Shown here in pieces: positions 7,141-47,036 of a DNA stretch of 64,000 bases. The position numbers were made by a program, and so were the translations under genes. The DNA comes from an uncultured Candidatus Micrarchaeota archaeon (GTDB lineage: Archaea; Micrarchaeota; Micrarchaeia; CAILAH01), in assembly GCA_903832205.1 (NCBI GenBank), contig CAILAH010000038.1:4456-68455 (forward strand). Reading direction: 5' to 3'. Position 1 is the first letter of the stretch. The number at the start of each line of letters is the position of its first letter. The notes beneath the pieces were generated by a model. The model was not told where the DNA came from, searched no databases, and saw nothing but the letters and a program-made list of their open reading frames with translations.

Positions 7141-9990
7141 ATGGGAAACAAGACAATATTCATCGTTATGATTTTGCTCTTTGCGAGCGCGGCTTTGGCG
7201 GCCGCACTCATCACAGTTCCGGCAAAGAACACCACAGTGTCAACCGTAAAGGTTAGCCCCGCCCCGCTCGTTTTCAACTATTCTGACAATGATGCAATAC
7301 CCTCATTGTATCTCAGCCTAGGCCCAACCACGCCGATTGCAAACAAGAATTTCTCGATAGTGGTCACGGCGACGGATGATAAGGGAGTCAGTGCGATAAG
7401 GCTGCTGCTCTCAAACGGATGGCAGAACTTCTCGTGCAGCAACCAACCAACCTGCATGAAGGAATTCTCTACATACGAGCAGAACATGGGCACATACTAT
7501 TACAAGGCAATGGTTATCGATAATGCACAGAAAGCTGCAGTGGGCTCAATCCCGATTGCGCTAACGCAGAAATGCCTGGAGAACTGGATGAAATACGGCA
7601 GCACCTGCCTGAACACCGACAAGCAGTACACTTCCTATTATGAGGCAAACGGCTGCGCAGTAACCACAACGCCCGCAGACAATGGGACTTATGTCTCATG
7701 CGACTACTGCACACCGAGCTGGCAGCCGCTGCAGAATCCGTGCACCATAAACGATTCGGCATTCACCTCCTACTATGATATATACACCTGCTTTGCGCAG
7801 ACAGGGCTTGTATCAGACAATAATGTCCCGGCCAATCAGTCAACATTCTGCGACTACTGCGTCACTGACATAAAGTCAACTTCATTAGCATGCACAGCCA
7901 ACGACACGCAGTACACGCACTTTTATGACACGAAAGATTGTTTCGGCATAACCGGATTGGTTGCAGACAAGGTCCCCGCGGACCAGCCGATGCCCTGCGA
8001 TTACTGCACGCCTGCACTGGTTGGGCACAATTCCACATGCGCAATTACAGACACTTACACTAAATCATACACAGATTCAAACACCTGCTTTTCGATAACA
8101 AACCTTTCTTCTGACAAGGTTCCTGTAAACGAGACTTTGGGCTGCGACTACTGCGCACCTAACTGGCAGCCGCAGTACACATCGTGCGTTAGCGGCAACA
8201 TGACCAAATATTACGTCGATGCGAACAATTGCTTTGCCATAACCAGTTTGCCATCGGACAACAACAAGCCAGCTAACGAGACAACGGGCTGCTCATCGGC
8301 AGGCCATCTTGAGCCATATATTGTTTTGCCGAATCAGTCAATATTGGTATCTGGCACGACCCTTGTGAACCAATCAAGAAATGTCACGGTAAGGACTGGA
8401 GTCAAATGCGTCGGCGGCCCCTGCAGCAATGTGACTGCGGCGCTTGACCCGCAGTTACAGATTGTTCCGAGAAAATTAAGAACATCGGTGATTACTGCCA
8501 AGCCCGTGGTTATCGACCAGCCGGTGATTACAAACCCGCAGGTGATTATCCTCTCGGCCAACCTGATAAAGAACGTCAATGAAACGCCGAGAATGGTCAT
8601 TGTAGAATTCAAGGATGACGATTTCTCGCTGGATGACAAGGTGCAGGGAAAGAAAGTCAAGGACAACCAGGACAGGACAATAAAAACGCTGAACAGCGAC
8701 GGGGAGAATTTCAAGGTAAAGTACAAGTATTCGCTGGTCAATGCAATGGCTGGTGAGATAAACTCAAAGGGATTGGATAAGCTCCTTAAGGACCCATCCG
8801 TTTCAGCGATTTATGAGGACTTCGTAGGCCAGGGCTCGGTAGCGCAGGGAAAGGAATCGCTCGGGCTCGACCATGTGAATAATTTCGTAATTAACGGGAA
8901 GAACCTCACTGGAAAGAACTATTCCATCTGCCTGATTGATTCGGGAGTGAATTACAACCACGAATCACTGGGCGGCGGCGGATACCCAAACGCAAAAGTC
9001 ATTGGCGGCTGGAATTTCGTGCACAATATCAGCGACGTTTATGACCTGAACGGCCACGGCACCAAGATGTCCGGAATACTTGCAGGCAACGGCACGGTAA
9101 GGGGCGTGGCTCCCGATGCGACTTTGGTAGAGGCCGTAGTATTGAACGAAACCAACTGGTATGTCGGCTCAAAGGCATATGCGGCAATGGACTGGTGCTA
9201 TGCAAACAGGGTACAATACAACATTGCGGCAGTCAGCATGAGCTTTGGGGATTCCATAGAAAATAATCTGACAACCTGCCCGTCGTACTTCAATGCCCCG
9301 CTAAGAAACATGAACCTTGCGGGAATGACTTTGGCCGCAGCTTCGGGCAATGAATGGTTTAACCACGGTATTGCCTATCCTTCGTGCTCGCCCTATGTGA
9401 TTGGCGTGGGCTCCATGGATGACGGCAGGTATTTCGGCACAGGCCTCAACGACACGATAACGAACTTCACGAACATCGGCTTTGGAATGAACTTCCTGCT
9501 TGCTCCCGGAAGGGGCATAGGCACCACTGACAGGGATACGGGGACGTCCTCATGCACGGGAACATCCTGCTCAACGCCATTCGTAGCTGCGGGCGGTTTG
9601 CTGATGAACCAATATTTGACACTGAAATACAACAGGACCATTAACAACCCGAAGATGTTCAACCTGCTCAACTCAACAGGAAGGCAGATCCCGATGGAGG
9701 ACAAGGCCAGGTACAACGGGACATTCACGTTGCCCTATTTTGACGAGGCGCTGATGAGGTTTGAGGTTCCGCAGCATAAGGCGATTGTGTCTATGGTAAA
9801 CACATCAAAGCCGTTCTACACATTGCAGCAGAACCCTGCATCCTGCGGCAATATGGCTGAAAACCAGGTTTGTGAAACCCAATGGAACGTCACGGCAACT
9901 GGGATTGTAGGCACCTATGAGTTCTACACGATATACAATTCGGGCAGCTCAGCGGCGAACACGACCAAGTTCAACGTGACCATTATCTAA
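7141..9990 (+). CDS. Subtilisin-like serine protease (peptidase S8), secreted, with five N-terminal tandem 49-aa Cys-containing repeats
   Basis: Signal/TM MGNKTIFIVMILLFASAALAAA. Repeats begin CDYC(T/A)P…SYYD…C F(A/G/S)ITxL…D(N)KVPAN at 7573-8289. Catalytic motifs are D in CLIDSGVNYNHE, H in LNGHGTKMSGI and S in GTSCSTPFVAAG. Many N-x-S/T sequons. Confidence 0.85.
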   Translation: MGNKTIFIVMILLFASAALAAALITVPAKNTTVSTVKVSPAPLVFNYSDNDAIPSLYLSLGPTTPIANKNFSIVVTATDDKGVSAIRLLLSNGWQNFSCSNQPTCMKEFSTYEQNMGTYYYKAMVIDNAQKAAVGSIPIALTQKCLENWMKYGSTCLNTDKQYTSYYEANGCAVTTTPADNGTYVSCDYCTPSWQPLQNPCTINDSAFTSYYDIYTCFAQTGLVSDNNVPANQSTFCDYCVTDIKSTSLACTANDTQYTHFYDTKDCFGITGLVADKVPADQPMPCDYCTPALVGHNSTCAITDTYTKSYTDSNTCFSITNLSSDKVPVNETLGCDYCAPNWQPQYTSCVSGNMTKYYVDANNCFAITSLPSDNNKPANETTGCSSAGHLEPYIVLPNQSILVSGTTLVNQSRNVTVRTGVKCVGGPCSNVTAALDPQLQIVPRKLRTSVITAKPVVIDQPVITNPQVIILSANLIKNVNETPRMVIVEFKDDDFSLDDKVQGKKVKDNQDRTIKTLNSDGENFKVKYKYSLVNAMAGEINSKGLDKLLKDPSVSAIYEDFVGQGSVAQGKESLGLDHVNNFVINGKNLTGKNYSICLIDSGVNYNHESLGGGGYPNAKVIGGWNFVHNISDVYDLNGHGTKMSGILAGNGTVRGVAPDATLVEAVVLNETNWYVGSKAYAAMDWCYANRVQYNIAAVSMSFGDSIENNLTTCPSYFNAPLRNMNLAGMTLAAASGNEWFNHGIAYPSCSPYVIGVGSMDDGRYFGTGLNDTITNFTNIGFGMNFLLAPGRGIGTTDRDTGTSSCTGTSCSTPFVAAGGLLMNQYLTLKYNRTINNPKMFNLLNSTGRQIPMEDKARYNGTFTLPYFDEALMRFEVPQHKAIVSMVNTSKPFYTLQQNPASCGNMAENQVCETQWNVTATGIVGTYEFYTIYNSGSSAANTTKFNVTII

Positions 9991-10052
9991 TCCTTTATTT
10001 TTTTAAAAACCGAAAGCCCCTGCATGAAAAAATGCAGGGAGAATATTCAAAC
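9991..10052. terminator. Bidirectional terminator region between convergent genes: T-run plus hairpin CCCCTGCATG-AAAAAA-TGCAGGG
   Basis: TTATTTTTTT directly after the subtilase stop. Perfect 8-bp inverted repeat at 10017-10039. Confidence 0.4.
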
Positions 10053-10871
10053 CTAGCGTGACAGCGCCTTTAAAGTCACTTCGAATTCCAGCGTCTTGCC
10101 TGCAAGCGGACCGTTTTCGTCCAGCACTACTGTTTCGTTGTCGGCAGAGGCGACCTTCACAAGGCTCACGGCCCCCGAAGTTGGGTCGGCGATATTATAC
10201 GTGCTGCCCGTTACCACATCAAGCCTGATTAGCAGGGTATCGTTGCTTACGCTCACGACTTCCATCGGGAGGCCGGATTGCGTAAACTTCTGGCCAACGT
10301 CCATTGAAAACATCAGGGTAACGGTGTCGTTGGTGAAATTGTATATGGAAAGGCTGCCCACTGCAGCCGGCAGTGCCTCGCCCGCCTTGATTGTAATGTT
10401 GTCCTTTTCCAAATCGCTCCTGGCGACGTCCTGGAAGCGGGATATGTTATAGTAGCGCGGCACGCTGGCCATCTTCGCAGGGTCGGAGAGGCCGTAGCCG
10501 TCTATCGGCGCTACTGAGAAGTTCTTCGACTCGCCCACTTTCATCCCCACAACACCGTTTACAAATCCCGGAATAATACCATGGTTGGTAAGCAGCGCGA
10601 ATGTAAGGGGCTGGTAGCCCGCATTTGCATTGTAAATTCCCGCGCTCATTGCCACATCGGGCAGGGAAGTGTCCAGCACCTGCCCGTCCACGCGGAGGGT
10701 GTAATCCACCGTGACGTTGTCACCGTACTGTGCGGTGAGTGCGGCGGGCTGCGTTGAATTCTGCGTGGAATTTTGCAGCGGAGTTGTTCCCTGGTTGGTG
10801 CATCCAAAAAGGAGGATGCCGAACATCAGGAATGCGGACAACAGCAGGAATTTTTTCATAAAGATATTCAT
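10053..10871 (-). CDS. FKBP-type peptidyl-prolyl cis-trans isomerase, secreted/lipoprotein-like
   Basis: Signal peptide ending LLFGC. FKBP motifs YTLRVDGQVLDTS, IIPGFVNGVVGMKVGESKNFSVAPIDGYG and C-terminal GPLAGKTLEFEVTLKAL. Confidence 0.7.
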   Translation of the reverse strand: MNIFMKKFLLLSAFLMFGILLFGCTNQGTTPLQNSTQNSTQPAALTAQYGDNVTVDYTLRVDGQVLDTSLPDVAMSAGIYNANAGYQPLTFALLTNHGIIPGFVNGVVGMKVGESKNFSVAPIDGYGLSDPAKMASVPRYYNISRFQDVARSDLEKDNITIKAGEALPAAVGSLSIYNFTNDTVTLMFSMDVGQKFTQSGLPMEVVSVSNDTLLIRLDVVTGSTYNIADPTSGAVSLVKVASADNETVVLDENGPLAGKTLEFEVTLKALSR

Positions 10872-20929: not shown

Positions 20930-21049
20930 TGCGGCTGCCGAGATTTGAACTCGGGTCTCAGGCTTGCCTCGATTTCTTAGTGCAGGTTCCTTGCTGCGCA
21001 AAGAAAGTGCTTGGAAGGCCAGTGTCCTACCAGGCTAGACTACAGCCGC
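20930..21049 (-). tRNA. tRNA-Gly(UCC) with one intron at about 37/38 (47 nt; about 20965-21011)
   Basis: Hand-folded. Exon 1 GCGGCUGUAGUCUAGCCUGGUAGGACACUGGCCUUCCA. Exon 2 AGCCUGAGACCCGAGUUCAAAUCUCGGCAGCCGCA. One A·U mismatch in the anticodon stem. Spliced length 73 nt. Confidence 0.6.
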
Positions 21050-34467: not shown

Positions 34468-36051
34468 ATGGATTCCGGCAAGGACGGCAAGAACAAGCGG
34501 CAGGAAGCGATTGACAGGGTTATTGATGAGGTTGTGAAATCAGAGAAGGCCGATGTTGAGAAATACAAGAGGCAATACAGCAAGGAATACGGGTTGGCTA
34601 TCTTCATCAGGAATTCAGAGCTTGTTGGCAGGGCAAGGGAGCGCAATCTCGAGCAGCTCATCCCGTTTTTGCGCAAGAGGCCCATGAGAAGCATTAGCGG
34701 CATTGTGAATCTTGCCATAATGACTGTGAGCGACTGCCCGCACGGCAGGTGCACCTACTGCCCCAAGGGTGATGGGACGCCGAATTCATATACGGGGTTT
34801 GAGCCCGCGACAATGCGCGGCATCCAGAACAAGTATAATGCCTACGACCAGATAATTTCGCGCGTAACACAGCTCACTGAGATTGGGCACCCTACCGATA
34901 AGTGCGAGGTGATTGTGCAGGGCGGCACGTTCCCCGCGCAGGAGCTTTCCTATCAGCAGCAGTTCATTCTCGACATGTACAACGCACTAAACGGAATTAA
35001 ATCAGCAACAATCCAGGAAGCCATAACAAAAAACGAGAGCGCCCCGCACAGGTGCATCGGATTGACAATTGAGACAAGGCCCGACTGGTGCTTTGAGAAG
35101 CATGTTGACGGAATGCTCGCGTTTGGAGCAACGCGTGTTGAGATTGGCGTACAGACGCTTAAGCGCGATGTTCTTGAAAAGACAAAAAGGGGGCATACGC
35201 TTGAGGACGTATGGAAATCAACACAGATAGCGAGGGATTCGCTGCTCAAGGTATGCTATCACATGATGCCCGGGCTCTATGCATCGCCGAAAGAGGACGT
35301 GGACATGTTCAGGCAGCTTTTTGAGGATGCGCACTATAAGCCGGACATGCTTAAGATCTATCCGTTCCTCGTGATGAAAGGCACGGAGATTTACAAGGAA
35401 TGGGAGGACGGGAAAATCAAGCCCTACACAAGCGAGGAAGCTGCCGATGTAATCGCGGATGCCTACAGGCACATCCCCTATTACGCCAGGGTTATGCGCG
35501 TCCAAAGGGATATTCCGGCATACCTTATTGATGACGGCGTAAAGAAGAGCAACCTGCGCGAGGCAGTTGAGATACGGCTTAGGAAAAACAAGATGCCGAT
35601 TGAAGAGATGCGCTACAGGGAAGTGGGCCATAACGTGTTGAAGGGCAAAGCGAAAATGGAGGACTTAAATCCCGAACTGCTGGTGCGCAAGTATGATGCG
35701 TCCGAAGGCGAGGAATATTTCATCAGCTTTGAGGATAAGAAAACCAATCTGCTTTTTGGATTCCTGCGCCTGCGCAATCCGGCACATCCGCATCGCAAGG
35801 AGATAACCAGTAAATCCGCAGGCATAAGGGAGCTTCATGTTTACGGCGAGCAATTGCCCCTCAGCAAGCGCAGCGACACCTCACCGCAGCATACTGGTCT
35901 CGGTAAAAGCCTGATGGACGAGGCGGAGAGGATTGCAAAAGAGGAATTCGACTCCAACAAGATCCTTGTAATTAGCGGAGTTGGTGTGAGGAATTACTAC
36001 AGAAAACTGGGATACGAATTGGACGGGCCATATATGTCAAAATTAATCTAA
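34468..36051 (+). CDS. elp3: Elp3-like radical-SAM/GNAT tRNA uridine-34 acetyltransferase
   Basis: Radical-SAM cluster CPHGRCTYCP and a C-terminal GNAT domain (LHVYGEQLPL…HTGLGKSLMDEAERIA). 527 aa. Confidence 0.8.
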   Translation: MDSGKDGKNKRQEAIDRVIDEVVKSEKADVEKYKRQYSKEYGLAIFIRNSELVGRARERNLEQLIPFLRKRPMRSISGIVNLAIMTVSDCPHGRCTYCPKGDGTPNSYTGFEPATMRGIQNKYNAYDQIISRVTQLTEIGHPTDKCEVIVQGGTFPAQELSYQQQFILDMYNALNGIKSATIQEAITKNESAPHRCIGLTIETRPDWCFEKHVDGMLAFGATRVEIGVQTLKRDVLEKTKRGHTLEDVWKSTQIARDSLLKVCYHMMPGLYASPKEDVDMFRQLFEDAHYKPDMLKIYPFLVMKGTEIYKEWEDGKIKPYTSEEAADVIADAYRHIPYYARVMRVQRDIPAYLIDDGVKKSNLREAVEIRLRKNKMPIEEMRYREVGHNVLKGKAKMEDLNPELLVRKYDASEGEEYFISFEDKKTNLLFGFLRLRNPAHPHRKEITSKSAGIRELHVYGEQLPLSKRSDTSPQHTGLGKSLMDEAERIAKEEFDSNKILVISGVGVRNYYRKLGYELDGPYMSKLI

Positions 36052-37742
36052 TGGCCCAATCGATGTTTTTTTGCTTGTAAACATTCAATAGCAGCTGTTT
36101 TAAGCCCCACAACCTTTTCACATGTTATTAGTATTTTGTTAATTGCCGCTATGAGCCCCTCAACGTCCTGATTGACATCATGCCTAAAGGATATTCTAAT
36201 ATCGAGACTAACTGGCATTCCAATAGATTCATTGTATTCCCAAGTGTCCCTAAGTTCAGGTGGAACTGATAGGCCTAATGAGTTATCAAACATGTCGTAC
36301 GCCCTCGCAATCTCGTCACACCAGTCCAAATTCTTAATGTCCGTTACATGATATTCCGTCTTATTAAATCTTATAAAAAAATTCTTTGGCAATGGCGAGG
36401 GCAGCGCCAAATATCCTGAAAGGTAACGATTCGGATTAAGCAATAACTTTTGAAAATACAATTTTACATTATCTGTTGTGCTAATAGGTTTTATGTAAAA
36501 TTCAATACCGTTATTCAATCTGATCGCAGCCTTACTGCACGCATCAAGTGACCGGCGATTCCTTTTTTCAATATGTGTGAGTATGGGTTCCATAACTCCA
36601 TTAATTATTCTATTTCTCATTTCAAGCAGCACTTCATTCCTTCTATCAATTGATATTGATTCGAGGTCCTCAAGTGCCTTGTAAAGTGAATACAACTCAG
36701 GCAATGATACTCTATATTTCGGTTTCCAAATTCTATGTGAATTATTTGGTGCAAGGGCAGTTTTGTTGCTGAATTCACCTAATATCTGTGGGTGTGATGT
36801 TAATGGAAGAAATTTTTGTGTAGTGCCCAAGACCTCATCACTTACATATGATATCCCTATGGTTGGCTCTGCGCCAAGTGTCTTAGATGAAGACATAATG
36901 CATATGTCTCCAAGTAATGGCGCATCAAAATCAATTGAGCTAAAGGTATGTGAACAGTCAACAAGCTTTATTCTAGTGCTATCATACCCTATTTTAGCAC
37001 CTAATGCATCCTCATTTATTTCTCCAGTAGTCCGATGACAGTGTTCATAAACATCAATAAATGCAGCATTTTTTGCTTCAGCTTTGCCGATTGATATTAT
37101 TGGTTCTCCAGTAGTTTTCTCCAATGGAAAGTCTGCAGTGGAGTATATAAATATCAGCGCCATATCGGACAAACGAATGCCTCCGAAAATGCGACGATCC
37201 TTTTCATTAATGGAAGACAAATTTTTTGGATTTATGCGAGTGAGTACAATACTATTACGTTTACACATTTGAGCAATGCTATTTCCAATAAGCAATGCTG
37301 ATTCACATGAATTTATTCCATAATTTTGCCGTGTGAGATTTTTGTCTCTATGTTTTCCTTTAATCAAATCCTGCCAAAAATCAATATCACTTAAAGTGGG
37401 GTATAAATCATTGCCTTGATGGGTGATTATGAGCCCGTTTTTTTTATTTTTCTCAAGCAGTGCAAGAATGTGCGGAAACGCCGCGGCCGTGGCAGATGAG
37501 GAGAGCGAGACGTTTTTCGGGTCACAATGAATCCTTTTTGCAATCTTTTCGCGGACTGCCTCGGACATCTCAATTACAAGTCTCGCAAGTTTCCTGTGCC
37601 TGCCGTCGCGCTCAAACCTCATTATCTCTTCGTTCATCAGCTTTGCGCATTTGTGGTACCTATCGGTTGCACGTACGCCAGCTGCCCAGTCAAAATACAT
37701 ATTCTCTCTTATGGCATACTTGCCATCGCCTTTCATCATCAA
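36048..37742 (-). CDS. PLP-dependent class-V-aminotransferase/cysteine-desulfurase-like N-terminal domain fused to a large uncharacterised C-terminal region; lies in a low-GC island
   Basis: SSSKTLGAEP resembles the SufS/NifS PLP-lysine box S(G/S)HKxxGP. The ORF is visibly AT-rich (about 38-40% GC against about 52% in flanks). Confidence 0.4.
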   Translation of the reverse strand: MMMKGDGKYAIRENMYFDWAAGVRATDRYHKCAKLMNEEIMRFERDGRHRKLARLVIEMSEAVREKIAKRIHCDPKNVSLSSSATAAAFPHILALLEKNKKNGLIITHQGNDLYPTLSDIDFWQDLIKGKHRDKNLTRQNYGINSCESALLIGNSIAQMCKRNSIVLTRINPKNLSSINEKDRRIFGGIRLSDMALIFIYSTADFPLEKTTGEPIISIGKAEAKNAAFIDVYEHCHRTTGEINEDALGAKIGYDSTRIKLVDCSHTFSSIDFDAPLLGDICIMSSSKTLGAEPTIGISYVSDEVLGTTQKFLPLTSHPQILGEFSNKTALAPNNSHRIWKPKYRVSLPELYSLYKALEDLESISIDRRNEVLLEMRNRIINGVMEPILTHIEKRNRRSLDACSKAAIRLNNGIEFYIKPISTTDNVKLYFQKLLLNPNRYLSGYLALPSPLPKNFFIRFNKTEYHVTDIKNLDWCDEIARAYDMFDNSLGLSVPPELRDTWEYNESIGMPVSLDIRISFRHDVNQDVEGLIAAINKILITCEKVVGLKTAAIECLQAKKHRLGH

Positions 37743-37798: not shown

Positions 37799-39709
37799 TC
37801 AGAGCATCTTAAGTAGCGCCTTCTTTTTTGCGGAATCGTGGAGCGCATACTCGAGCACTTCCTTGAACGTCTTAACGGGAAGTATGTGCACTTTCTTGAG
37901 CATCTCCTTGCTGAGCACCACATCGTCCTTGTTGCTGTAGGGTATGATGACCGTGCCCATGCCGGTCTCGATTGCCGCCTCGACCTTTGAGCTCACCCCG
38001 CCGACGGGAAGAACCTCCCCGCGCACGCTCAATGAGCCGGTCATTGCGATGTCCTGCCTGATTGGTATATCCTCAAGCGCGGAGAACACCGCGGTGGCAA
38101 TGCTTATGCTCGCGCTGTCGCCCTCCACGCCCTCATATGTCTGGAGGAACTGTATGTGAATGTCCTTGTTCGCCACATCGGAGCCGAGATGCTTCTTGAT
38201 GATTGCCGAGACGTTCTCAACCGCCTCCTTTGCAATCTCACCGAGCTTTCCTGTCGCTATTATGCGGTTCTCCTGCTTTGAGCTGGCAGGCGTAATCTGC
38301 GCCTCAATGGGCAGCACAATGCCTGCGCTGCCGTCGCCAATCACCGCAAGCCCGTTGACCTTTCCCACCGCAACGCCCTTGTTCGCAAACACATCGTAAT
38401 CCTTTTTGAAATCGATTATCTTTGATGCAAGCTGCTGCTCAAGCGGCGCTGCGAGAAGCCTTGCCTCCTGTATGTGCCTGGCCTCGACCAGCTTTGCCTT
38501 CTGCTCAACGGCAATATCACCGGCAGCGCGGATGAGCCCGCCCAGGTCGCGCATCTTCAATGTGAGCTTGCCCTTCCTGCCGGCCATCCTCTTTGCCGAT
38601 ATGATTATTTCCTCGACCGCATCATTTGTGAAATGCGGTATCTTGCCGTCCTTCACAACTTCCTGCGCTATGAACTGCACGAACTTTTTCCTGTTCTCCG
38701 GGGTGTCATCAATGGTGTCCTCCATGTACACCTCGTATCCGTACCCCTTTATCCTTGAGCGGAGCGCGGGATGCATCTTGGAAACATCCTGCAGGTTGCC
38801 CGCTGCAACAAGCAAAAAGTCACAGGGGACCGGGTCGGTGCGCACGAGCGCGCCCGAGCTTGTTTCGCTCTGTCCCGTAATCGGGAATTTCTTGTTTTGC
38901 ATTGCGGAGAGCAGGTCCTGCTGCGATTTTCCGCCGAGCAGCGCCATCTCATCGATGAACAAAACGCCCTTATTGGCCCTGTGTATCGCGCCAGCCTCCA
39001 CGCGAAGGTGCGCTGGAGTGCCGAGGCCGCCGCTCTGCAGCGGGTCGTGCTTCACGTCGCCGAACAGCGCGCCTGCCTTTGAGCCGGTCGCCTCATTGAA
39101 CGGCGCAGTCTCCCTTAGGCTGTTGTCAACGATAAGCTTGGGCTCAGCAGATGCGAACATGGGGCCCATGCGCTTGCTAATCTGCGATACGAAAAGCCAC
39201 GCTGCTATTATGATGAATGCGCCGAGCGTACCTGCCGCAATGAGATTGGTCGAGCCCGGGGCCGCATACTGGTAAACTAACCCGGCAACCACGGATATTG
39301 CTAATATTATGGCGAATATCTTGAGGAGCGAGAACGTGCCGCCTTCGGGCACCATCCCCATTTTCCTCTGCTCATCGATAATGCGCCTTCCCTTCCCAGG
39401 CATCTTTTTCTTAAGCTCCTCTTTTGAATCGTAAGTCCTTACTACCCTTACCTTTGGGTTGTTCTCATCGATCTTGTTCGGGTAGATGAGCACGTCCTCC
39501 AAATCCTCGGCGGGCATAATCTCGCACATCGCCTGCGCGAGCATGCTCTTGCCCGTGCCCGGAAGGCCCACAAGCAGCACGTGCCTCTTCTGGCGCCCGG
39601 CTTTCTTGATAATCTCAACGGCCTTGTCCTGCCCTATGACCTGCTCTATGAGCTTCTTGGGGACCTCAATCTCACTGGTATCTTTTTCCGTGTATTTCAA
39701 TGGGCTCAC
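37799..39709 (-). CDS. lonB: Archaeal membrane-bound Lon protease (LonB)
   Basis: Walker [13 protein letters not shown], two TM helices inserted in the AAA+ module, protease Ser box [13 protein letters not shown], catalytic Lys downstream. Confidence 0.9.
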
Positions 39710-39769
39710 CGCGAGTCAATTCAAGAACCGATTGTTTTTATATTCCAGCAGTGGGGAACCGCGTAATAG

Positions 39770-39777
39770 GTTTAAAA
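39770..39777 (+). promoter_or_regulatory. TATA-like box (TTTAAAAA) upstream of tfb
   Basis: AT-rich octamer 19-32 nt upstream of the two candidate ATGs (39796 and 39802). Confidence 0.3.
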
Positions 39778-39795
39778 ACTTTACGATTATTGTTT

Positions 39796-40770
39796 ATGCA
39801 TATGCCCAAGAAAAGCAAGGCTCCAAAAAAGAGCGTAGAAAAGGCGCAGCCTAAACTAAAAAGCCCGCAGGGATCGGTCGTATGCCCCAACTGCGGAAGC
39901 AGGCGTGTCGTGAGAGATTACGAGCGCGCTGAACAGGTTTGTGCTGACTGCGGCCTCGTTCTTGCGGAGTATCTTATTGATATGGGTGCCGAGTGGAGGG
40001 CCTACGACTCAACTGAGCTGAAGAGCAAGGCGCGCGGTGGCGCACCGCTCAAGTACATAAGGCCTGACAAGGGGCTTACTACCGAGATTGACCTCTACAA
40101 CAGGGACATCCGCGGGCTTAAAATATCCGGCAAGAAGGTGGCGCAAATATCACGAATGAGAAAATGGCACAAGAGGTCTGCCGTATCGACCTCCATCGAA
40201 AGGAACCTTATGATCGCGCTCAACGAGCTTGACAGGATTGCGTCCTATCTGGCCCTTTCCAAAGATGTGAGGGAGGACGCGGCACTGCTCTACAGGCAGG
40301 TGGCCGTGAAAGGCCTCGTCCGCGGCAGGCTCATCGAGAACGTGGTAAGCGCGGTGCTCTATGCGACCTGCAGGAAGCACCAGATACCCAGGACGCTTGA
40401 CGAGATTGCGCAGGTGTCCGGCGTTGACAGGAAGGAAATCGGCAGGACGTTCCGGTTCATCCTGCACGAGATGGACATCAAGATACCGCTCGGCGGCCCG
40501 GAGCAGCTCATCCCGCGTGTCGCAACAAGGCTGAAGCTGGGCGACAAGACGGTCGGGAAAATCAATGAGCTGTTCGAAAAGGCGATGAAAAAGGATCTGG
40601 TGATGGGACGGGGCCCCCAGGGAATTGTTGCGGCAATAGTCTACATATCATGCGAATTGTCAGGCGAAAAGAGGACGCAGAAGGACATTGCCGAAGCGCT
40701 CGGTGTTACCGAAGTCACGATCAGGAACAGGTACAAGGAAATCGCAAAGGAACTCAACGTGGACGTTTAA
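39796..40770 (+). CDS. tfb: Transcription initiation factor IIB (TFB)
   Basis: N-terminal Zn ribbon CPNCGS…CADCG, B-reader, and two cyclin-fold repeats with a C-terminal HTH (VTEVTIRNRYKEI). Confidence 0.9.
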   Translation: MHMPKKSKAPKKSVEKAQPKLKSPQGSVVCPNCGSRRVVRDYERAEQVCADCGLVLAEYLIDMGAEWRAYDSTELKSKARGGAPLKYIRPDKGLTTEIDLYNRDIRGLKISGKKVAQISRMRKWHKRSAVSTSIERNLMIALNELDRIASYLALSKDVREDAALLYRQVAVKGLVRGRLIENVVSAVLYATCRKHQIPRTLDEIAQVSGVDRKEIGRTFRFILHEMDIKIPLGGPEQLIPRVATRLKLGDKTVGKINELFEKAMKKDLVMGRGPQGIVAAIVYISCELSGEKRTQKDIAEALGVTEVTIRNRYKEIAKELNVDV

Positions 40771-40848: not shown

Positions 40849-41916
40849 CTACTCTTCAAGTATCTCTTTCACGCTTGCGTTTGTCCTGATTATCCAGTTC
40901 TTGTAGGAAGTTGAGACTGCCTTGAATCCCATGCTGTGCAGCCTGTCAAGCGCGTCAATTGTTTTTGGAATGGTCTTGCCCTTGAATAATGTGTGCAGCT
41001 CAAAACAGAACCCGTCAAAATTCTCGTCCTTGAGCGTGTTCAGCAGCTTGAGCTCCTCTTTCATATTTTTGTACTGCCTCTTCTCAATTTCTGCAATCAT
41101 TTTTTCTAAAAATTCAGAATCCTGCAGCAGGCCGGACCAGAATGGCCCTGTAACAATCATCCTGCTTGTGCACAGTTCGCAAGTGCTCCCATCGCCCGGC
41201 TTGATGTATTTCCTATGCTTGCATTTCTCGCAGTATGCCATGAACTTTATTTCCGCCAGGCTCTTGTCGCACAGCACGGCGCTCTTGGTTACAGCGAAGA
41301 ATACCTTCAGGTAATGCCTGTGCGATATGGATAGTATGGGCGTCACCGCAAGGTTCTTCTCAGCAAAAATGGATTGTATCCGTGCAATGAGTATTCTCAA
41401 TGCGCTCTCGTGCACAATCTCATTATGGAATGGGACGGAGCCGTACATCCTTTTGCACGCCTTCGCCTCAGCACCGCACAGCACTGCCGTATCGGTTGCA
41501 GTCACGGAAAAATGCCCCGATTTTCTCCAGGAGAATGACTCCGCAAGCGATGCGAAATAGGGCGCGGGAGTGCCGAACGGGTCAATCTCCACAAAATCAT
41601 ATTTCTTTTCCATGAGCACCCTGCGGATGTCATCGTTGATTACTGTGATGCCTTTCGCATTGTTCAGCCCAATGTTACTTTCAATGATTGCGCAGGCGCG
41701 CTTGCTCAAATCAACCGCATCAACGCTCTCAACGCAATCATTCTCCAGTATTGCCCTGAGCGCCTTTATTCCAGTTGCTGAATGGCCGTCGCAAAATTCC
41801 TTTACGCCCAGTACGCCTACCGCGGCGCTGAGCAAATCCCTGTTGAGTTCCATCTTTGGATTGTAGAATACGCCATCAGCACTTGCGATGCGCACGCTTC
41901 CTTCTGTAATCATCAT
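40849..41916 (-). CDS. trm1: tRNA (guanine26-N2)-dimethyltransferase Trm1
   Basis: Hallmark YNPKMELNRDL near the N-terminus; C-terminal Cys cluster CEKCKH…CELC. ORF trimmed from 460 to 355 aa. Confidence 0.8.
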   Translation of the reverse strand: MMITEGSVRIASADGVFYNPKMELNRDLLSAAVGVLGVKEFCDGHSATGIKALRAILENDCVESVDAVDLSKRACAIIESNIGLNNAKGITVINDDIRRVLMEKKYDFVEIDPFGTPAPYFASLAESFSWRKSGHFSVTATDTAVLCGAEAKACKRMYGSVPFHNEIVHESALRILIARIQSIFAEKNLAVTPILSISHRHYLKVFFAVTKSAVLCDKSLAEIKFMAYCEKCKHRKYIKPGDGSTCELCTSRMIVTGPFWSGLLQDSEFLEKMIAEIEKRQYKNMKEELKLLNTLKDENFDGFCFELHTLFKGKTIPKTIDALDRLHSMGFKAVSTSYKNWIIRTNASVKEILEE

Positions 41917-41977
41917 TTTGAGTTCAGATGGCACAAAGTTTAAAAGATAGTTTACGCAATTAAATACGGTTATCTTA

Positions 41978-43894
41978 ATGGCTGGCAAGGGCACCGAACC
42001 TGATGAAGAAGAATCGGAATTCAAGTCGCTCGAGTTGTTTCCGGAAGGTGGGCGCAAGCCCGGCATTATGCCTAAGAAAAAGCCAAAGGAAGAAGTAAGG
42101 CCTGAAAAAATTGTTGCTAAAAAAGCCCGTAAAGAATATCCTGAGAAAGAGCGTGTTCTTGTTTTGCCGCAACCATCCCGTGAAGGGGAAATCGAATTCA
42201 ATCCCGCTTCCGTGCCAGCCTCATCGAGCAAGAGGTATTACGATGTGTGGTTTTACGTGGACCGCACCACACCTGAGGACTGGAAGAATTTTTTCAAGAA
42301 GCTCTCGGATTTTCACACGTATGTTACGCTGTACATTACCATTAAGGGCCGCGAGGTCCATTATATTATAGAAAGCAACCGGTTCCTTGAGAATGGGAAT
42401 GCGGTTTTCCATCCCTTTAGGGTGAAGCAGACCGATGCGCCCTCAATCCCGCATGCGGGTTTTCCCGGCGTGCGCATCCTGAACCACAAGGAAGTCTTTG
42501 AGTTCGAATCGCAGGAGAACGTGAGAAAGAACCGAGCCGCAAGATTAATTGTTGTGCGTGCTTTGGTCAAGTCCCCCCTGGACCGCAATGTTGCATGGGG
42601 AAAGGTTGTCTATTCAAACGGGCAGTCCGATGCCCTGTTTATTAGTGATGTGCACAAGTTTCTGTCTTTTGACATGCACAAGATGCTTGACAAGCAGTTC
42701 GAGAAGGTAAAGACTGAGCTCAGGCACTCAGACATACGCTTCCCAACCCAGCAAAAAAGCGGCGTGTTCTTCAGGAAGGAGGACATCGAGTTCGGAATTG
42801 AGGATTTCGATTTTTACAGGCACGGGCTGCTCGTGGGCCAGACAGGCTCGGGAAAGAGCAAGCTTCTCGAGCTTTACCTGCGCGGCCTCATTAATTGCGG
42901 CTACACAAAAGAGTACTCCGTGATTTTTCTTGATCCACATTTCAACATCTACAACAGCAATAAGTATGCGGGAAGCAAGCAGGTTGATTTCAGGAAAGAG
43001 GCAGTCGAGCTTTTCGCAAACGTGGGTGAGCCGCCCGCAGCGACCGAACTCACGCAGATACTATTCTCCTCATTCCTAGACCTGGATAATAATCCGCAGA
43101 TGTCACGGCTGCTTAAGCATTCATTATTCCTGCTGTTCTCCATACGGAAGATGAGCTTTGAGAATCTGAACCTTCTCTTGACAGACACGATGGCGCGCAA
43201 GGAATTCCTGAAGCATTGCGACAACCCGGTTATCAAGAAATTCTTTGATACGGAATTCCTCGAGTTCCAGACACAGAAGTACGAATCTACGATACTGCCC
43301 ATCGTCAATCTCATTAACGAGTACTCGCTTCTCAGCGCCAGCATAAATGAGGCGGACCAGCACAGGCTCGTGAGCCTCATCAACAAGCACAATGTAATTT
43401 TCCTTTCCCCGAACCCGTCGGAGCTCGGGAGGAACATGGTCAAGCTTATAGGCGGTGCGCTGGTGCAGCAGATATTCATGCTCATGCAGAGCGGCATGGT
43501 AAAGAAGAAGGTGATACTCGTGATTGACGAGTTCTCGCTTGTCCAAAACCCGGCCTTTGCGCAGATACTTGCAGAGGCGAGAAAGTTCGGGCTTACGATT
43601 ATCATGTCCCAGCAGTATCTGGGCCAGGTGGACCTGGAGCTTCTCCAGTCTATGCAGGCCAATGTCTCGAACCTTTTTTGCTTCAAGCTGAACCGCGCAG
43701 ATGCGGAAGTGGTCAAGCGCATGATGACGCTTGAGATAAGCGCGGTCTTTGAGAGCGGCAAGCAGTTTGCCGAGATTGAGGAGAAGAAGATTGAGCTCCT
43801 TACGGAGAGCAATCCCCGCGAGTGCATATTCCGCGTGGTGCAGGATGGCAATTACATGCGGCCCATGAAGGCCGGCACGGTGGATATCGATTAG
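41978..43894 (+). CDS. FtsK/HerA-superfamily P-loop ATPase (DUF87-like) with basic/acidic disordered N-terminus
   Basis: Walker A LLVGQTGSGKSKL; Walker B VILVIDEFSLV; downstream LTIIMSQQ (sensor/arginine-finger region). 638 aa. Confidence 0.55.
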   Translation: MAGKGTEPDEEESEFKSLELFPEGGRKPGIMPKKKPKEEVRPEKIVAKKARKEYPEKERVLVLPQPSREGEIEFNPASVPASSSKRYYDVWFYVDRTTPEDWKNFFKKLSDFHTYVTLYITIKGREVHYIIESNRFLENGNAVFHPFRVKQTDAPSIPHAGFPGVRILNHKEVFEFESQENVRKNRAARLIVVRALVKSPLDRNVAWGKVVYSNGQSDALFISDVHKFLSFDMHKMLDKQFEKVKTELRHSDIRFPTQQKSGVFFRKEDIEFGIEDFDFYRHGLLVGQTGSGKSKLLELYLRGLINCGYTKEYSVIFLDPHFNIYNSNKYAGSKQVDFRKEAVELFANVGEPPAATELTQILFSSFLDLDNNPQMSRLLKHSLFLLFSIRKMSFENLNLLLTDTMARKEFLKHCDNPVIKKFFDTEFLEFQTQKYESTILPIVNLINEYSLLSASINEADQHRLVSLINKHNVIFLSPNPSELGRNMVKLIGGALVQQIFMLMQSGMVKKKVILVIDEFSLVQNPAFAQILAEARKFGLTIIMSQQYLGQVDLELLQSMQANVSNLFCFKLNRADAEVVKRMMTLEISAVFESGKQFAEIEEKKIELLTESNPRECIFRVVQDGNYMRPMKAGTVDID

Positions 43895-43897
43895 GGT

Positions 43898-44620
43898 GTG
43901 ATGCTTATGGATGAGAATGAGACTTTCAGGGCGGTGTGCAAGGAGATATTCGGCCAGGATATTGGCCTCTCCCTAGAGGAGGGAGAAAAGGTGTTTGCAC
44001 AGGGGATACTCCTTCCTCCAAAGAGAAAAACCATTAGCGGTGAGACCGTTTACACCAATTATGATGCTGGTAAGTACGTGGATTTCAAGAATATCGAGAT
44101 GTCCATAAGGGAGGACACGCTTATGCGGAAGACCGCTGAGATAAAATCCCTGGAAGACCTGGAGCGCTTCTACCGCCAGGTTGATACGTTCCTTGCCAAC
44201 AAGACTATCAATAGCAAAGACTGCAGGATGTCGGACAGCGTGCTGGGAAGCATGAACGTTTATCACTCGCTGCAGGTGCGCTCATGCAAGTTCGTTGGAT
44301 TCTCACAGGAGCTTCAGGGATGCGAATATACCTACGGCTCGAAGTCAATGGCCGATTCCTCATTCTGCATCCGCTGCCAGGACAGCAAGCTGGTCAACAA
44401 CTGCTTTGAGGTCAGCTGGAGCGGGAAATGCTCGAACTGCCTATACTGCCACGACTGCTTTGATTTGAGAGACTGCATGTTCTGCTTTCATATTGTGTCA
44501 AAGCAGTACTGCATTGCTAACAGGCAGTACACGAAAGAGGAGTATTTCAGGATAAAAAAGAAGGTCGTGGCGCACCTTCTCAAGAACAAGTTCAAGATGA
44601 ATTTCTTCCCAGTGCTTTAA
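43898..44620 (+). CDS. Cys-rich protein (13 Cys in the C-terminal 100 aa) translationally coupled to the upstream ATPase
   Basis: Start lies 4 nt after the ATPase stop. C-terminal half has repeated CxxC/CxC units (FCIRCQDS…CSNCLYCHDCFDLRDCMFCFH). Confidence 0.45.
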   Translation: MMLMDENETFRAVCKEIFGQDIGLSLEEGEKVFAQGILLPPKRKTISGETVYTNYDAGKYVDFKNIEMSIREDTLMRKTAEIKSLEDLERFYRQVDTFLANKTINSKDCRMSDSVLGSMNVYHSLQVRSCKFVGFSQELQGCEYTYGSKSMADSSFCIRCQDSKLVNNCFEVSWSGKCSNCLYCHDCFDLRDCMFCFHIVSKQYCIANRQYTKEEYFRIKKKVVAHLLKNKFKMNFFPVL

Positions 44621-44708
44621 TGCCAATGCATACGCGGCTTTTCGTTCATTACACTAACGGTAACGCGCCTCTTTTAAGAATATAATGGTATGCTGCGATA
44701 CATAATCA

Positions 44709-45635
44709 ATGCAGTTTAAGGACGTGGCGCGAGTGGAGATAGCCGACGGTAGAACCATATGCCTAGATTTCAATGGGGACCTGTCATACATCTCGCACGC
44801 ACACTCCGACCACGTGGTGGGAAAGAAGAGAAATGAGGTTGTGGCTTCCGACCCGACAATCCATCTCTCAGGCATCTCGTACAATTCAAAACTGGTGCAC
44901 GACCATCTCAAGCTGCATCCCGCGGGGCACATGCTCGGGGCAACACAGGTTGAGATAAAGAGAGATGGCGGCAATTTCGTTTACACGGGAGACTTCAGCC
45001 TTGCGGACGGGTTCACCTACAAAGGTGCTAATATAGTAGAGGCGGATGAGCTGCTCATTGAATCCACCTATGGCTCGCCAGATTATCATTTCCCCAAGAA
45101 AGACGACCTGGCGCAAATCCTGAAGAAGGAGGTGCAGAGCAGGCTCCAGTACGGGAATCTCATATTCGCAGTTTATGCAACGGGCAAATCCCAGGAGCTC
45201 ATAAAAATACTGAACGAGCACTGCGGCATCACGCCGGTTGTGAGCCCCGATGTCGCAAAGGTGAGCGAGATTTACACGAAGCACGGGCAGAATCTCTCAT
45301 TCATCAATTCGCATTCCGATGAGGCAACTGAAGCGTTCAAGGGCAATTTCGTCGGCATAATACCGAAATCGCAGTTCAGGCCCGAGCTGAGGATGAGATT
45401 GACGCAGCATTACCACAGGCCCTGCTATTTCGGCTCATTGAGCGGGTGGAACGCGAAATTCCCGAGCGATGTGTACGACATCGCGCTGCCAATGAGCGAC
45501 CATGCGGACTTCAACGACCTGGTGGAGTATGTTGACCACAGCGACCCGAAGAAGGTATACGTGTTCGGCGCGTTCGCCGAGGGCCTCTCAAACGTTTTAA
45601 AGTTGCGCGGATATCAATCTTACGCAGTTGGATAA
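44709..45635 (+). CDS. Metallo-β-lactamase-fold hydrolase (possible β-CASP/RNA- or DNA-processing nuclease)
   Basis: HxHxDH motif ISHAHSDH near the N-terminus. Downstream His/Asp ligands (DHLKLHPAGHMLG, ESTYG). 308 aa. Confidence 0.5.
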   Translation: MQFKDVARVEIADGRTICLDFNGDLSYISHAHSDHVVGKKRNEVVASDPTIHLSGISYNSKLVHDHLKLHPAGHMLGATQVEIKRDGGNFVYTGDFSLADGFTYKGANIVEADELLIESTYGSPDYHFPKKDDLAQILKKEVQSRLQYGNLIFAVYATGKSQELIKILNEHCGITPVVSPDVAKVSEIYTKHGQNLSFINSHSDEATEAFKGNFVGIIPKSQFRPELRMRLTQHYHRPCYFGSLSGWNAKFPSDVYDIALPMSDHADFNDLVEYVDHSDPKKVYVFGAFAEGLSNVLKLRGYQSYAVG

Positions 45636-45647
45636 TGGTGTAAAAAT

Positions 45648-47036
45648 ATGGCGGCCAAGCATTTCTCCAAGGAAGTCTGGAACAGGATGCGCACACAGAT
45701 ACTCAAGGAGGTAAGGCCGTCGCCCGAATCGCACGCGGAGGTGCGCAAGGTCGCGGATGAGCTTGTTGAGAAACTGAACAAAATTTCCCCAACTGAAATT
45801 GACGTGATGCTTACCGGCTCTTTTGCCAAGGACACCTACGTCCGCTCGGATGTTGATTTTGACATATTCATTTTATTCCCCGAGAAATTCACACTCTACG
45901 ATTTGCAGACCATGACGTTTGAGTGGGCCAAGAAGTTCCTTGAGAACTGGGAGGTCGCCTATGCGCAGCATCCCTATCTCCGTGGCTATTACAAGGGGCA
46001 TCATGTTGATGTGGTTCCCAGCTATAGGATAAGGGAGGGCGAGCCCGTCAGGATTAAGAGTGCGGTGGACAGGACGCAGCTGCACACAAAGTACGTCCTC
46101 TCGGTAATCACGGATGCGCAGAGGGATGACGTGCGCATACTCAAGAAGTTCATGAAGCGGTTGGGAATTTACGGCGCGGAGATAAGGACAGGAGGATTTT
46201 CAGGCTACCTCTGCGAATTGCTCATAATAAAGTACGGCTCGTTCTACGATCTCATAATGGCTGCGCGCAACTGGAAGTTCCCGGTTGCGGTTGATGTGAC
46301 GGGCGGCAGGAGCGAGCGGCTTCTGCACGCGCTGTTCAAGGAGGACACATTCGTGATCACGGACCCGGTTGACAAGAAGAGAAACGTCGCATCGCCTGTA
46401 AGTTCTGATTCATTGTCAAAATTCGTCGCTGCGGCGCACGTGTTTTTCCTGAACCCGAACGCGGCAATGTTTTTCACTGAGATTGAATTGCTCGGCATGA
46501 AAGAGATACGCAAGCAGGTTGCCGAGCGCGGCACATCGTTCGTGCTGTTCGAATTCCCAAAGCCCAAGAAGGCGGATGACATTTTGTGGGGCGAGATTCG
46601 CAAGACGCTTGGCTGCATTGAATGTTCTTTTGACAAGGAGGAATTCAACTGCACGCACCAGACCGCAGAGGTGCACGAGGGCAAGTGCTACATGCTTTTC
46701 GAGCTTGTGCACGATACCCTTCCCGCAGTGACGCTGCAGGCAGGGCCCTACGTGCGCATGGGGCCGCATCTTGAGAAATTCATCCAGGAGGAAATGAACA
46801 ACGTTGATTTGTTCGTGAAGGACGAGCGCATGTGGGCAGTTAGAAAGAGAAAATACAGCAGCGTGCTCCAGCTTGTTGAGGACATACGGAAGAACCCGCT
46901 CTGCCATGGTGTGAGCAAGGGCATAATGAAGGAGATTTCAACGGCGAACATCTACACGAGTGATGATTCTATTTTTGAGGACAGCCGGAAGGTGTACACG
47001 ATGCATCTCAACAGGAAATTCTTCCTGGGGCTTTGA
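45648..47036 (+). CDS. cca: CCA-adding enzyme (class I archaeal tRNA nucleotidyltransferase)
   Basis: GSFAKDTYVRSDVDFDIFILF (Pol-β nucleotidyltransferase motif) and GGFSGYLCELLII head-domain motif. 462 aa. Confidence 0.85.
   Translation: MAAKHFSKEVWNRMRTQILKEVRPSPESHAEVRKVADELVEKLNKISPTEIDVMLTGSFAKDTYVRSDVDFDIFILFPEKFTLYDLQTMTFEWAKKFLENWEVAYAQHPYLRGYYKGHHVDVVPSYRIREGEPVRIKSAVDRTQLHTKYVLSVITDAQRDDVRILKKFMKRLGIYGAEIRTGGFSGYLCELLIIKYGSFYDLIMAARNWKFPVAVDVTGGRSERLLHALFKEDTFVITDPVDKKRNVASPVSSDSLSKFVAAAHVFFLNPNAAMFFTEIELLGMKEIRKQVAERGTSFVLFEFPKPKKADDILWGEIRKTLGCIECSFDKEEFNCTHQTAEVHEGKCYMLFELVHDTLPAVTLQAGPYVRMGPHLEKFIQEEMNNVDLFVKDERMWAVRKRKYSSVLQLVEDIRKNPLCHGVSKGIMKEISTANIYTSDDSIFEDSRKVYTMHLNRKFFLGL

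Follow-up and report, generated by a model that had tools for sequence, protein, structure and literature searches.

In a 64,000-nucleotide (nt) stretch of a contig from an uncultured Candidatus Micrarchaeota archaeon (CAILAH010000038.1; this whole stretch is called the window below), we identified a two-gene unit that encodes a soluble P-loop ATPase and, directly downstream, a small cysteine-rich partner protein. The two genes are translationally coupled, and they are inherited and exchanged as a unit in archaea and bacteria. An earlier note on this DNA, made from the letters alone, had proposed a three-gene module for translocation, repair or defence that also included a metallo-β-lactamase (MBL)-fold nuclease gene, and had suggested that the cysteines of the middle protein form a multi-zinc or Fe-S module. 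We found that the partner is a beta-solenoid that belongs to no described family and that the MBL gene is independent of the pair.

We compared the pair with its relatives by a motif-seeded scan with one genome per species, from which the best 80 of 100 confirmed hits were kept. An ATPase homologue was detected by tblastn directly 5' of the partner gene, on the same strand, in 76 of the 76 loci that have DNA upstream of the partner; the remaining four are cut by a contig end at that side. So constant an adjacency, in 76 of 76 informative loci from two domains of life, goes well beyond what chance would give. From the stop of the ATPase gene to the start of the partner gene, the median distance is -4 nt, with 74 of the 76 loci at 30 nt or less; the translational coupling that had been read from the window alone holds in relatives. 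Loss of the Cys-rich open reading frame (ORF) from relatives, an outcome that had been named as damaging to the proposal, was not seen in these loci. Contigs recovered by exact protein look-up gave six distinct neighbourhoods, each with the ATPase beside a partner of ~237 amino acids (aa) and none with an MBL gene. Pairwise identities of the two proteins correlate with r = 0.97 over 69 loci. An ATPase gene followed by a partner gene is a known type of layout, and this ATPase family, this partner family and their combination match no model in four curated family libraries. Keyword searches of the literature found no description of the pair. The suggestion that the combination is a new one holds in this form, for two genes.

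The ATPase is a soluble member of the HerA/VirD4/VirB4 clade of the FtsK-HerA superfamily. Its charged N-terminal tail (nt 41978-42232) is followed by an N-domain of alpha/beta structure and by a motor domain into which a helical segment is inserted. An alignment of 20 archaeal and bacterial homologues shows the Walker A, DPH, Walker B, ExRK and QY (QQY) motifs to be invariant throughout, together with D517, E518, E533, R535 and K536. Because these catalytic motifs are invariant, the enzyme is very probably active. The tail (residues 1-85, 41% K/R/E/D) is as long and as charged as first described; in the same alignment it is shared only with close Micrarchaeota relatives, and the bacterial homologues have none. 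The DUF87/HerA central domain was the sole Pfam family to score above its cut-off (26.4 bits; cut-off 23.2). TrwB_AAD_bind scored 20.3 bits, just under its cut-off of 20.5, and FtsK_SpoIIIE scored 13.6 bits against a cut-off of 24, over the P-loop only. The original assignment to an FtsK/HerA/DUF87-type ATPase is borne out by the DUF87 score, the Walker motifs and the fold matches given below, and the protein does not group with housekeeping FtsK/SpoIIIE. The top NCBIfam matches were TraD, CedD and EccC, at about 23 bits against cut-offs of 366 to 600 (SXT_TraD, 23.1 against 366; CedD, 22.9 against 600; TraD_Ftype, 16.1 against 521). In PADLOC, mad8 matched at 1.1e-13 and the HerA profiles matched weakly; the MADS paper held nothing informative on mad8.

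The structure predicted by AlphaFold for residues 86-638 (predicted local distance difference test score, pLDDT, 77) was compared with solved structures by Foldseek. The top matches were HerA (4d2i, 3.6e-11), Sir2-HerA, DUF4297-HerA, TrwB (1.6e-8) and VirB4 (6.5e-8). At the level of sequence, solved structures (PDB sequences, including FtsK and EssC) align with the ATPase around the P-loop only. The N-domain matched no Pfam family, including DUF8128, which is found in the nearest outgroup. These outgroup ATPases are proteins of the candidate phyla radiation (CPR) with DUF8128 and DUF87 domains, one of two also carrying a T4SS-DNA_transf domain, and no partner gene is adjacent to them. A homologue search with the ATPase alignment gave one new distant sequence (P0178) among the matches listed. 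We found no transmembrane segment in the window ATPase (maximum 19-residue Kyte-Doolittle hydropathy, 1.40). A hydrophobic N-terminal segment occurs in 3 of 70 family ORFs, one of which is a separate second ATPase in a Shapirobacteria locus (L039). This second ATPase (8334-10646 of its contig) is 770 aa long, has a strongly hydrophobic N-terminus and lies 3 kb 3' of a soluble ATPase-partner pair; it looks like a canonical coupling protein.

The partner protein is built of a small N-domain, a beta-solenoid with a ladder of Ser and Cys residues, and a C-terminal helix. The GTG at 43898 that opens the 240-aa ORF lies 3 nt after the TAG stop codon of the ATPase (43892-43894). The close coupling of the two genes stands; the spacing is 3 nt and not 4 nt as reported, and the start itself is more likely the ATG at 43907, giving a protein of 237 aa. 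We prefer the ATG because a GGTG motif lies 8 nt upstream of it, all 17 aligned homologues have Met at the corresponding position, and the protein is 237 aa long in its database copy (P0001). The ORF does pack its cysteines toward the C-terminus, as had been noticed: there are 14 in the window protein, 13 of them within residues 109-205. The ladder residues (106, 112, 118 and so on up to 193) follow a strict 6-residue period, and Cys/Ser occupancy gives an autocorrelation that is strongest at lag 12 (0.62) and somewhat lower at lags 6 (0.54) and 18 (0.53). In the family alignment, Cys and Ser together fill 82-100% of each ladder column, and the share of Cys per column ranges from 0 to 0.88.

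This pattern argues against a metal-binding role for the cysteines. Only C196 and C205 are invariant among 17 sequences, and at the position of C205 a double-domain branch of the family has Ala in its consensus. The number of Cys residues in the solenoid varies from 2 to 14 across family members. Because Cys and Ser interchange along the ladder, few Cys are invariant and the Cys count is variable, the cysteines are small core residues of a narrow solenoid and do not form a conserved set of metal ligands. A metal or Fe-S cluster, for which about 13 Cys had been put forward, was ruled out by the invariance of 2 of them and the exchange of the others with Ser; the multi-zinc or Fe-S interpretation is effectively excluded. 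For the study of protein structure, a solenoid in which Cys and Ser alternate freely at each sixth position is of interest in itself.

We searched for relatives of the partner by fold, family and sequence profile. The best of five AlphaFold models had a pLDDT of 75, the other four being lower, and shows continuous beta structure from about residue 100 to 211. Foldseek searches of PDB and BFVD with this model returned nothing significant (best E 0.14, TM-score ~0.15); the top matches, weak and non-significant, were left-handed beta-helix proteins. No family in Pfam, NCBIfam or PADLOC matched the window partner, its bacterial homologues or the double-domain forms, and the partner profile had no match among PDB sequences. 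There was one weak match, at 5.5e-5, to a PHROG of unknown function. In a search of 1.84 billion cluster representatives, the profile found 2241 relatives, 819 of them at ≤1e-10 and 193 at ≤1e-30. Many of these are ~525 aa long and carry the domain twice in tandem. The pI has a median of 5.1 in the partners, most of which are acidic, and of 9.1 in the ATPases, most of which are basic. The net charge of the solenoid has a median of -3 and is +2 in the window protein, and a DNA-mimic solenoid has no support from a charge that is only mildly negative. Neither protein has a signal peptide or, in the case of the partner as for the ATPase, a membrane segment.

The partner shares its general architecture with known beta-solenoid proteins, including the hexapeptide left-handed beta-helix proteins (gamma-carbonic anhydrase, LpxA), bactofilins and pentapeptide-repeat proteins. 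It has a period of 6 with a small residue (Ser or Cys) at each sixth position, and its fold matches, all of them weak, are confined to left-handed beta-helix proteins. It differs from all of these in having no significant match to them in sequence or structure (E > 0.1) and no match to the Pfam families Hexapep, Bactofilin and Pentapeptide. Ladders of Cys residues are known from other solenoids, for example the Tenebrio antifreeze protein, in which the coils are 12 residues long. The partner, however, is cytoplasmic and its Cys can be replaced by Ser, so that it requires neither a disulfide ladder nor a metal ladder.

Three groups make up the 80 loci: Micrarchaeota; Patescibacteria (Saccharibacteria, Microgenomates-type phyla, Taylorbacteria and others); and a large set of gut metagenome-assembled genomes (MAGs) with a GC content of 21-32% that are labelled Bacilli, Tenericutes, Mollicutes or Erysipelotrichaceae. 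Close homologues of the window proteins are from Micrarchaeota MAGs. In L010, L018, L019, L031, L043, L051, L055, L061 and L064, the label of the MAG conflicts with the sequence clustering. The labels include Dehalococcoidales, Muribaculaceae, Gammaproteobacteria and Bdellovibrionales; the contigs cluster with Micrarchaeota, CPR or low-GC Bacilli, and the MAGs with conflicting labels in the Bacilli-type group, such as those labelled Muribaculaceae, share its low GC.

Transfer of the pair between archaea and bacteria is indicated by sequence comparison, because the ATPase of one Micrarchaeota locus (L017) shares more identity with CPR Microgenomates ATPases (47-48%) than with the window ATPase (~30%). 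A TnpB/Cas12f-like gene lies beside the L017 ATPase gene, upstream of it. Two contigs from Saccharibacteria MAGs (L029 and L075; GC 0.45) carry a cassette of the Bacilli type, Rob-like regulator included (see below). The ATPases on them share 48-51% identity with their counterparts in gut Bacilli of ~25% GC, which points to an exchange between Saccharibacteria and Bacilli of the gut unless the contigs were mis-binned. Apart from the pair and its regulator, no flanking family is common to more than 5 of the 80 loci. On plasmids (Bacillus, archaeal), only remote matches to the ATPase motor were found, with 23-24% identity over half its length.

Many of the loci include a regulatory gene next to the pair. 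In 39 Bacilli-type loci there is a Rob-like regulator of ~264 aa, with an AraC helix-turn-helix and a GyrI-like/Cass2 domain, upstream of the ATPase and on the same strand. Its best named relatives are RobA, SoxS and RamA. The regulator is directly upstream in 36 of the 39 loci, most commonly with a spacer of 76 nt (for example, L018:2276-3058); in L026, L028 and L048, one or two extra genes, of which one encodes a transglutaminase core, lie between regulator and ATPase. The regulator of Micrarchaeota relatives is of the Lrp/AsnC type, tandem and divergently placed, and a bacterial (CPR-like) contig, L005, has a MerR regulator with a GyrI-like domain. Such ligand-sensing regulators are not found beside the pair in the window and are absent from most CPR loci.

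The partner gene is amplified in some archaeal loci. Two Micrarchaeota loci have 6-8 tandem paralogues (L017:493-9347 and L027:170-5821); those of L017 follow one ATPase gene, and the L027 array ends at the contig edge. In addition, 77 metagenome loci with archaeal marker genes (L090-L166; for example, L103, L117 and L149) have double-domain arrays of up to 9 genes, in which fused forms of ~525 aa are interleaved with pairs of ~255 aa. In 11 of these 77 loci, an ATPase homologue lies within ~6 kb. Regulators of the Lrp (tandem), HTH_10 and TrmB families are interspersed in the arrays.

We tentatively favour, at somewhat under an even chance, a reading in which this two-gene operon encodes an inducible, accessory ring translocase and a partner that docks on it. 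By analogy with its relatives, the ATPase would form a hexameric ring that moves along nucleic acid. The partner would dock on the ring and gate or target the motor, in the way that NurA, Sir2 or DUF4297 act on HerA. A dimer is its probable working form, since the domain occurs both fused in double-domain proteins and in alternating single-domain pairs. An inducible accessory function, and not a core housekeeping one, is suggested because the cassette moves between lineages, occurs at varied positions, adjoins ligand-sensing regulators and has given rise to partner arrays in DPANN-like archaea. The small size of the family, with 193 cluster representatives at ≤1e-30, and the lack of widely shared flanking families point the same way. 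The likeliest role would be that of a conflict system, directed against viruses or mobile elements, or of a stress response. We lean this way because the cassette is mobile and has regulators beside it, because its partner has diversified, and because it is structurally akin to defence HerA systems; as a specific step, a conflict or stress role is a possibility that we hold with less conviction than the translocase itself.

Known HerA systems are the closest models for this arrangement. HerA-NurA, which resects DNA ends in archaea, likewise combines a HerA-clade P-loop motor with a tightly coupled partner gene. HerA is both the best structural match of the window ATPase and the family whose central-domain cut-off is passed, and the DPH and ARK motifs of the ATPase resemble those of HerA. 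There are also differences. The solenoid partner is not NurA and has no nuclease fold, and this is so at 76 of 76 loci. The N-domain of the window ATPase is alpha/beta and without a family match, with no HAS barrel evident in it, and similarity in sequence to solved HerA structures is confined to the P-loop region. The anti-phage systems Sir2-HerA and DUF4297-HerA (8wld, 8ziq, 8sub) also consist of an ATPase and a partner gene, and horizontal mobility is common to them and the pair. Unlike these systems, the pair has no Sir2 or DUF4297 effector, and its loci have no defence-island context. The HerA_antiphage model (NF042943) did not match the window ATPase and gave 16 bits for a Bacilli member, against a cut-off of 800.

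Several observations weigh against the reading of the pair as an inducible accessory system, particularly one for conflict. The partner has no recognizable effector domain, such as a nuclease or NADase. The median identity among partners is 48%, compared to 37% among ATPases, which is unusual for a fast-evolving conflict effector. Searches of phages, plasmids and IMG/VR gave no homologue of the partner. Pfam and PADLOC matches of 150 flanking proteins showed no defence-island context and gave no support for a defence island or mobile element around the pair: no Pfam family occurred more than 4 times and no PADLOC family more than twice, and the mobile or defence matches were 2 serine recombinases, 2 RhuM proteins and 2 reverse transcriptases. 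Most of the flanking genes are housekeeping genes, occasionally for UvrB, DnaG, HhH-GPD or RecG proteins. In the window, GC is flat, the composition of the pair is ordinary and core genes surround it (TFB, Lon, Trm1, cca, SecDF and a ribosomal protein operon), which rules out a genomic island at this locus; the variable region for which the earlier note had proposed a check is not seen there. The 80-locus scan indicates where close relatives live and not how prevalent the pair is within those lineages. Finally, some MAG labels are clearly wrong, and errors of binning or labelling in the public records are likely.

It is also conceivable, although we think it unlikely, that the ATPase is an orphan type IV coupling protein (VirD4/TraD/CedD-like) that feeds DNA or protein to a channel encoded elsewhere. 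The solenoid would then be an adaptor or a translocated substrate or effector, which would suit ultra-small, host-dependent cells. Type IV coupling proteins (TrwB, VirD4, TraD and archaeal CedD) have a motor with a helical insertion and a TrwB-like fold, as does the window ATPase. The names of the top NCBIfam matches, the near-threshold TrwB_AAD_bind score, the fold match to TrwB, the domain found in one of the two outgroup proteins and the likeness of the partner arrays to effector repertoires all point in this direction. Against it, the family lacks an N-terminal membrane anchor, and genes for VirB4, a relaxase or the channel of a type IV secretion system are not linked to the pair in the 80 loci. 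The NCBIfam cut-offs are missed more than tenfold, and the partner has no signal peptide and is unusually conserved in length and sequence for an effector.

A survey of Patescibacteria bears on this alternative. According to PMC12102498, 2,918 genomes of Patescibacteria contain 5,713 VirD4-like homologues, of which 148 are near virB4. Like the ATPase gene of the pair, these orphan homologues lie away from virB4; the authors suggest that the orphans were possibly taken over for other functions. An obligate beta-solenoid partner is not mentioned in the passages on coupling proteins that we consulted. In PMC12102498 the coupling-protein homologue (t4cp) of Ca. Southlakia epibionticum is described as non-essential for epibiotic growth, which would count against this alternative if that gene belonged to the family described here.

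Two further alternatives are each improbable. In the first, the pair has a housekeeping role: the solenoid polymerizes as bactofilins do, and genome-reduced lineages have kept the ATPase as a translocase for segregation or repair. The bactofilin domain is similar in size to the solenoid, which spans ~110 residues, and the weak, non-significant PDB and BFVD matches include a 'polymer-forming cytoskeletal protein'. The housekeeping nature of the flanks and the retention of the pair in genomes of ~1 Mb, which suggests usefulness, would also fit. However, synteny is not conserved, the family is of small size and patchy occurrence, transfer between the domains is indicated, dedicated ligand-sensing regulators adjoin the pair, and there is no sequence match to bactofilin or FtsK.

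The second, to which we give an equally low standing, is a response to xenobiotics or antibiotics, in which a Rob-like or MerR/GyrI-like sensor induces the pair and the solenoid protects or mimics a target. Pentapeptide-repeat proteins such as Qnr and MfpA protect or mimic their target, and MfpB, which works with MfpA, would be the model for the ATPase as an energy-dependent helper. GyrI-like/Cass2 regulators are linked to the pair in the 39 Bacilli-type loci and in L005, and the partner has both a beta-solenoid architecture and, in most cases, an acidic pI. The slight charge of the solenoid itself, the absence of such regulators from the window and most CPR loci, and the fact that the ATPase is of the ring-translocase type and not a small GTPase argue against this possibility.

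The three-gene module of ATPase, metal binder and MBL nuclease, which drew on the common strand and short spacers in the window and on the frequent pairing of HerA-type ATPases with nucleases (HerA-NurA, DUF4297-HerA), is effectively excluded: an MBL homologue is present in none of 166 related loci compared (including the 80 scanned, by tblastn), a T-run and a TATA-like box separate the partner from the MBL gene, and the Cys residues are not conserved in position as metal ligands would be.

The MBL gene is independent of the pair and encodes a nuclease of the beta-CASP type. Both the HAHSDH-bearing MBL-fold hydrolase and the CCA-adding enzyme that follows it are present as originally described. 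It had been allowed that the MBL protein might plainly be RNase Z and unrelated to the other two; it does not belong with them, and it is a beta-CASP protein and not RNase Z. NCBIfam TIGR04122 matched over its full length (1.9e-34; 119 bits, under the cut-off of 325), Cas14 and aCPSF1 families matched at ~1e-14, and the matches among PDB sequences were CPSF73, aCPSF1, Integrator subunit 11 and Cas14. All of these matches are beta-CASP proteins, and none is to a family or structure of RNase Z. The protein shares the HxHxDH motif with beta-CASP nucleases such as the TIGR04122 and aCPSF1/CPSF73 proteins. It differs from the ligase-associated exonucleases of TIGR04122 in being compact and in its linkage, in the window, to cca. 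The spacer between the partner and the MBL gene is likely a transcript boundary, and the MBL gene, which ends 12 nt before cca, is probably co-transcribed with it. The 12-nt gap and the TATA-like box of its own suggest a nuclease-cca transcription unit, with a possible role in tRNA 3'-end processing or RNA turnover.

Genome-reduced lineages (DPANN, CPR and Mollicutes-like Bacilli) keep few accessory genes, and most of the families enriched in them are of unknown function. One such unit is now defined: it is strictly coupled, co-evolving and linked to regulators, it bears signs of transfer between archaea and bacteria, and its partner family has no detectable relative in any library searched. 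The partner is a new type for the growing set of HerA-type ATPase systems. The pair family may account for part of the orphan coupling-protein ATPases of Patescibacteria. In a broader reading, which we consider doubtful, the pair would be a hitherto unrecognized two-component machine, a soluble ring motor with a solenoid rod of new fold, that has spread horizontally among ultra-small, genome-reduced organisms of both domains that occur together (DPANN archaea, CPR bacteria and reduced Bacilli). If so, its function would be one not seen in model organisms: possibly a new class of immunity with specificity residing in the diversified solenoid paralogues, or else motor-driven exchange of DNA or protein with hosts. 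The cassette of gut Bacilli, with its regulator, ATPase and partner, is a concrete three-gene unit that can be cloned.

Features of the pair and its flanks in the window (positions are those of the 64,000-nt stretch)
Feature	Position	Strand	Details
TATA-like box (TTTAAAAGATAG)	41939..41950	+	~28-39 nt 5' of the ATPase ATG; read from sequence
Soluble HerA/VirD4-clade P-loop ATPase	41978..43894	+	638 aa; Pfam DUF87, Foldseek
Walker A, VGQTGSGKSK	42833..42862	+	residues 286-295; G287, G290, G292, K293 and S294 invariant in 20 homologues
Walker B, VILVIDEF, and EARKFG arginine finger	43511..43591	+	residues 512-519 and 533-538
GGTG, Shine-Dalgarno-like motif	43895..43898	+	between the ATPase stop and ATG 43907
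Partner protein	43898..44620	+	240 aa from GTG; more likely 237 aa from ATG 43907
Beta-solenoid region	44198..44533	+	residues 101-212; Ser or Cys at each 6th position
Intergenic spacer	44621..44708	+	88 nt; T-run (GGCTTTTCGTT) and TATA-like box (TTTTAAGAATATAA)
Compact beta-CASP MBL nuclease	44709..45635	+	308 aa; HAHSDH at nt 44796-44813, residues 30-35
CCA-adding enzyme	45648-47036		tRNA_NucTransf2, 4.7e-38

The genes around the pair are archaeal in content and include those for Lon (37799-39709, minus strand), TFB (39700-40770), Trm1 and a class I CCA-adding enzyme; SecF/SecD and a ribosomal protein operon from L3 to S3 are also present in the window. The divergent neighbour of the ATPase gene is trm1. 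The mechanically called ORF at 40849-42231 (minus strand) over-extends Trm1 by ~104 codons and overlaps the 5' end of the ATPase gene. The true start of Trm1 is near 41917, where there is an ATGATG, and the Pfam TRM domain begins at residue 109 of the mechanical ORF. The divergent spacer between trm1 and the ATPase gene is then 60 nt long and AT-rich, and contains the TTTAAAAGATAG box, a putative promoter element for the pair.

Two other features of the window were observed. A 564-aa ORF between Elp3 and Lon (36048-37742, minus strand) has a GC content of 39%, compared to a window average of ~51%; no Pfam family matched it, no membrane segment was found in it, and the gene may be specific to the lineage or of recent acquisition. 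A tRNA match of 54.5 bits to Rfam at 20930-21049 (minus strand), missed by ARAGORN, presumably contains an intron, because it spans 120 nt; this fits an archaeal genome.

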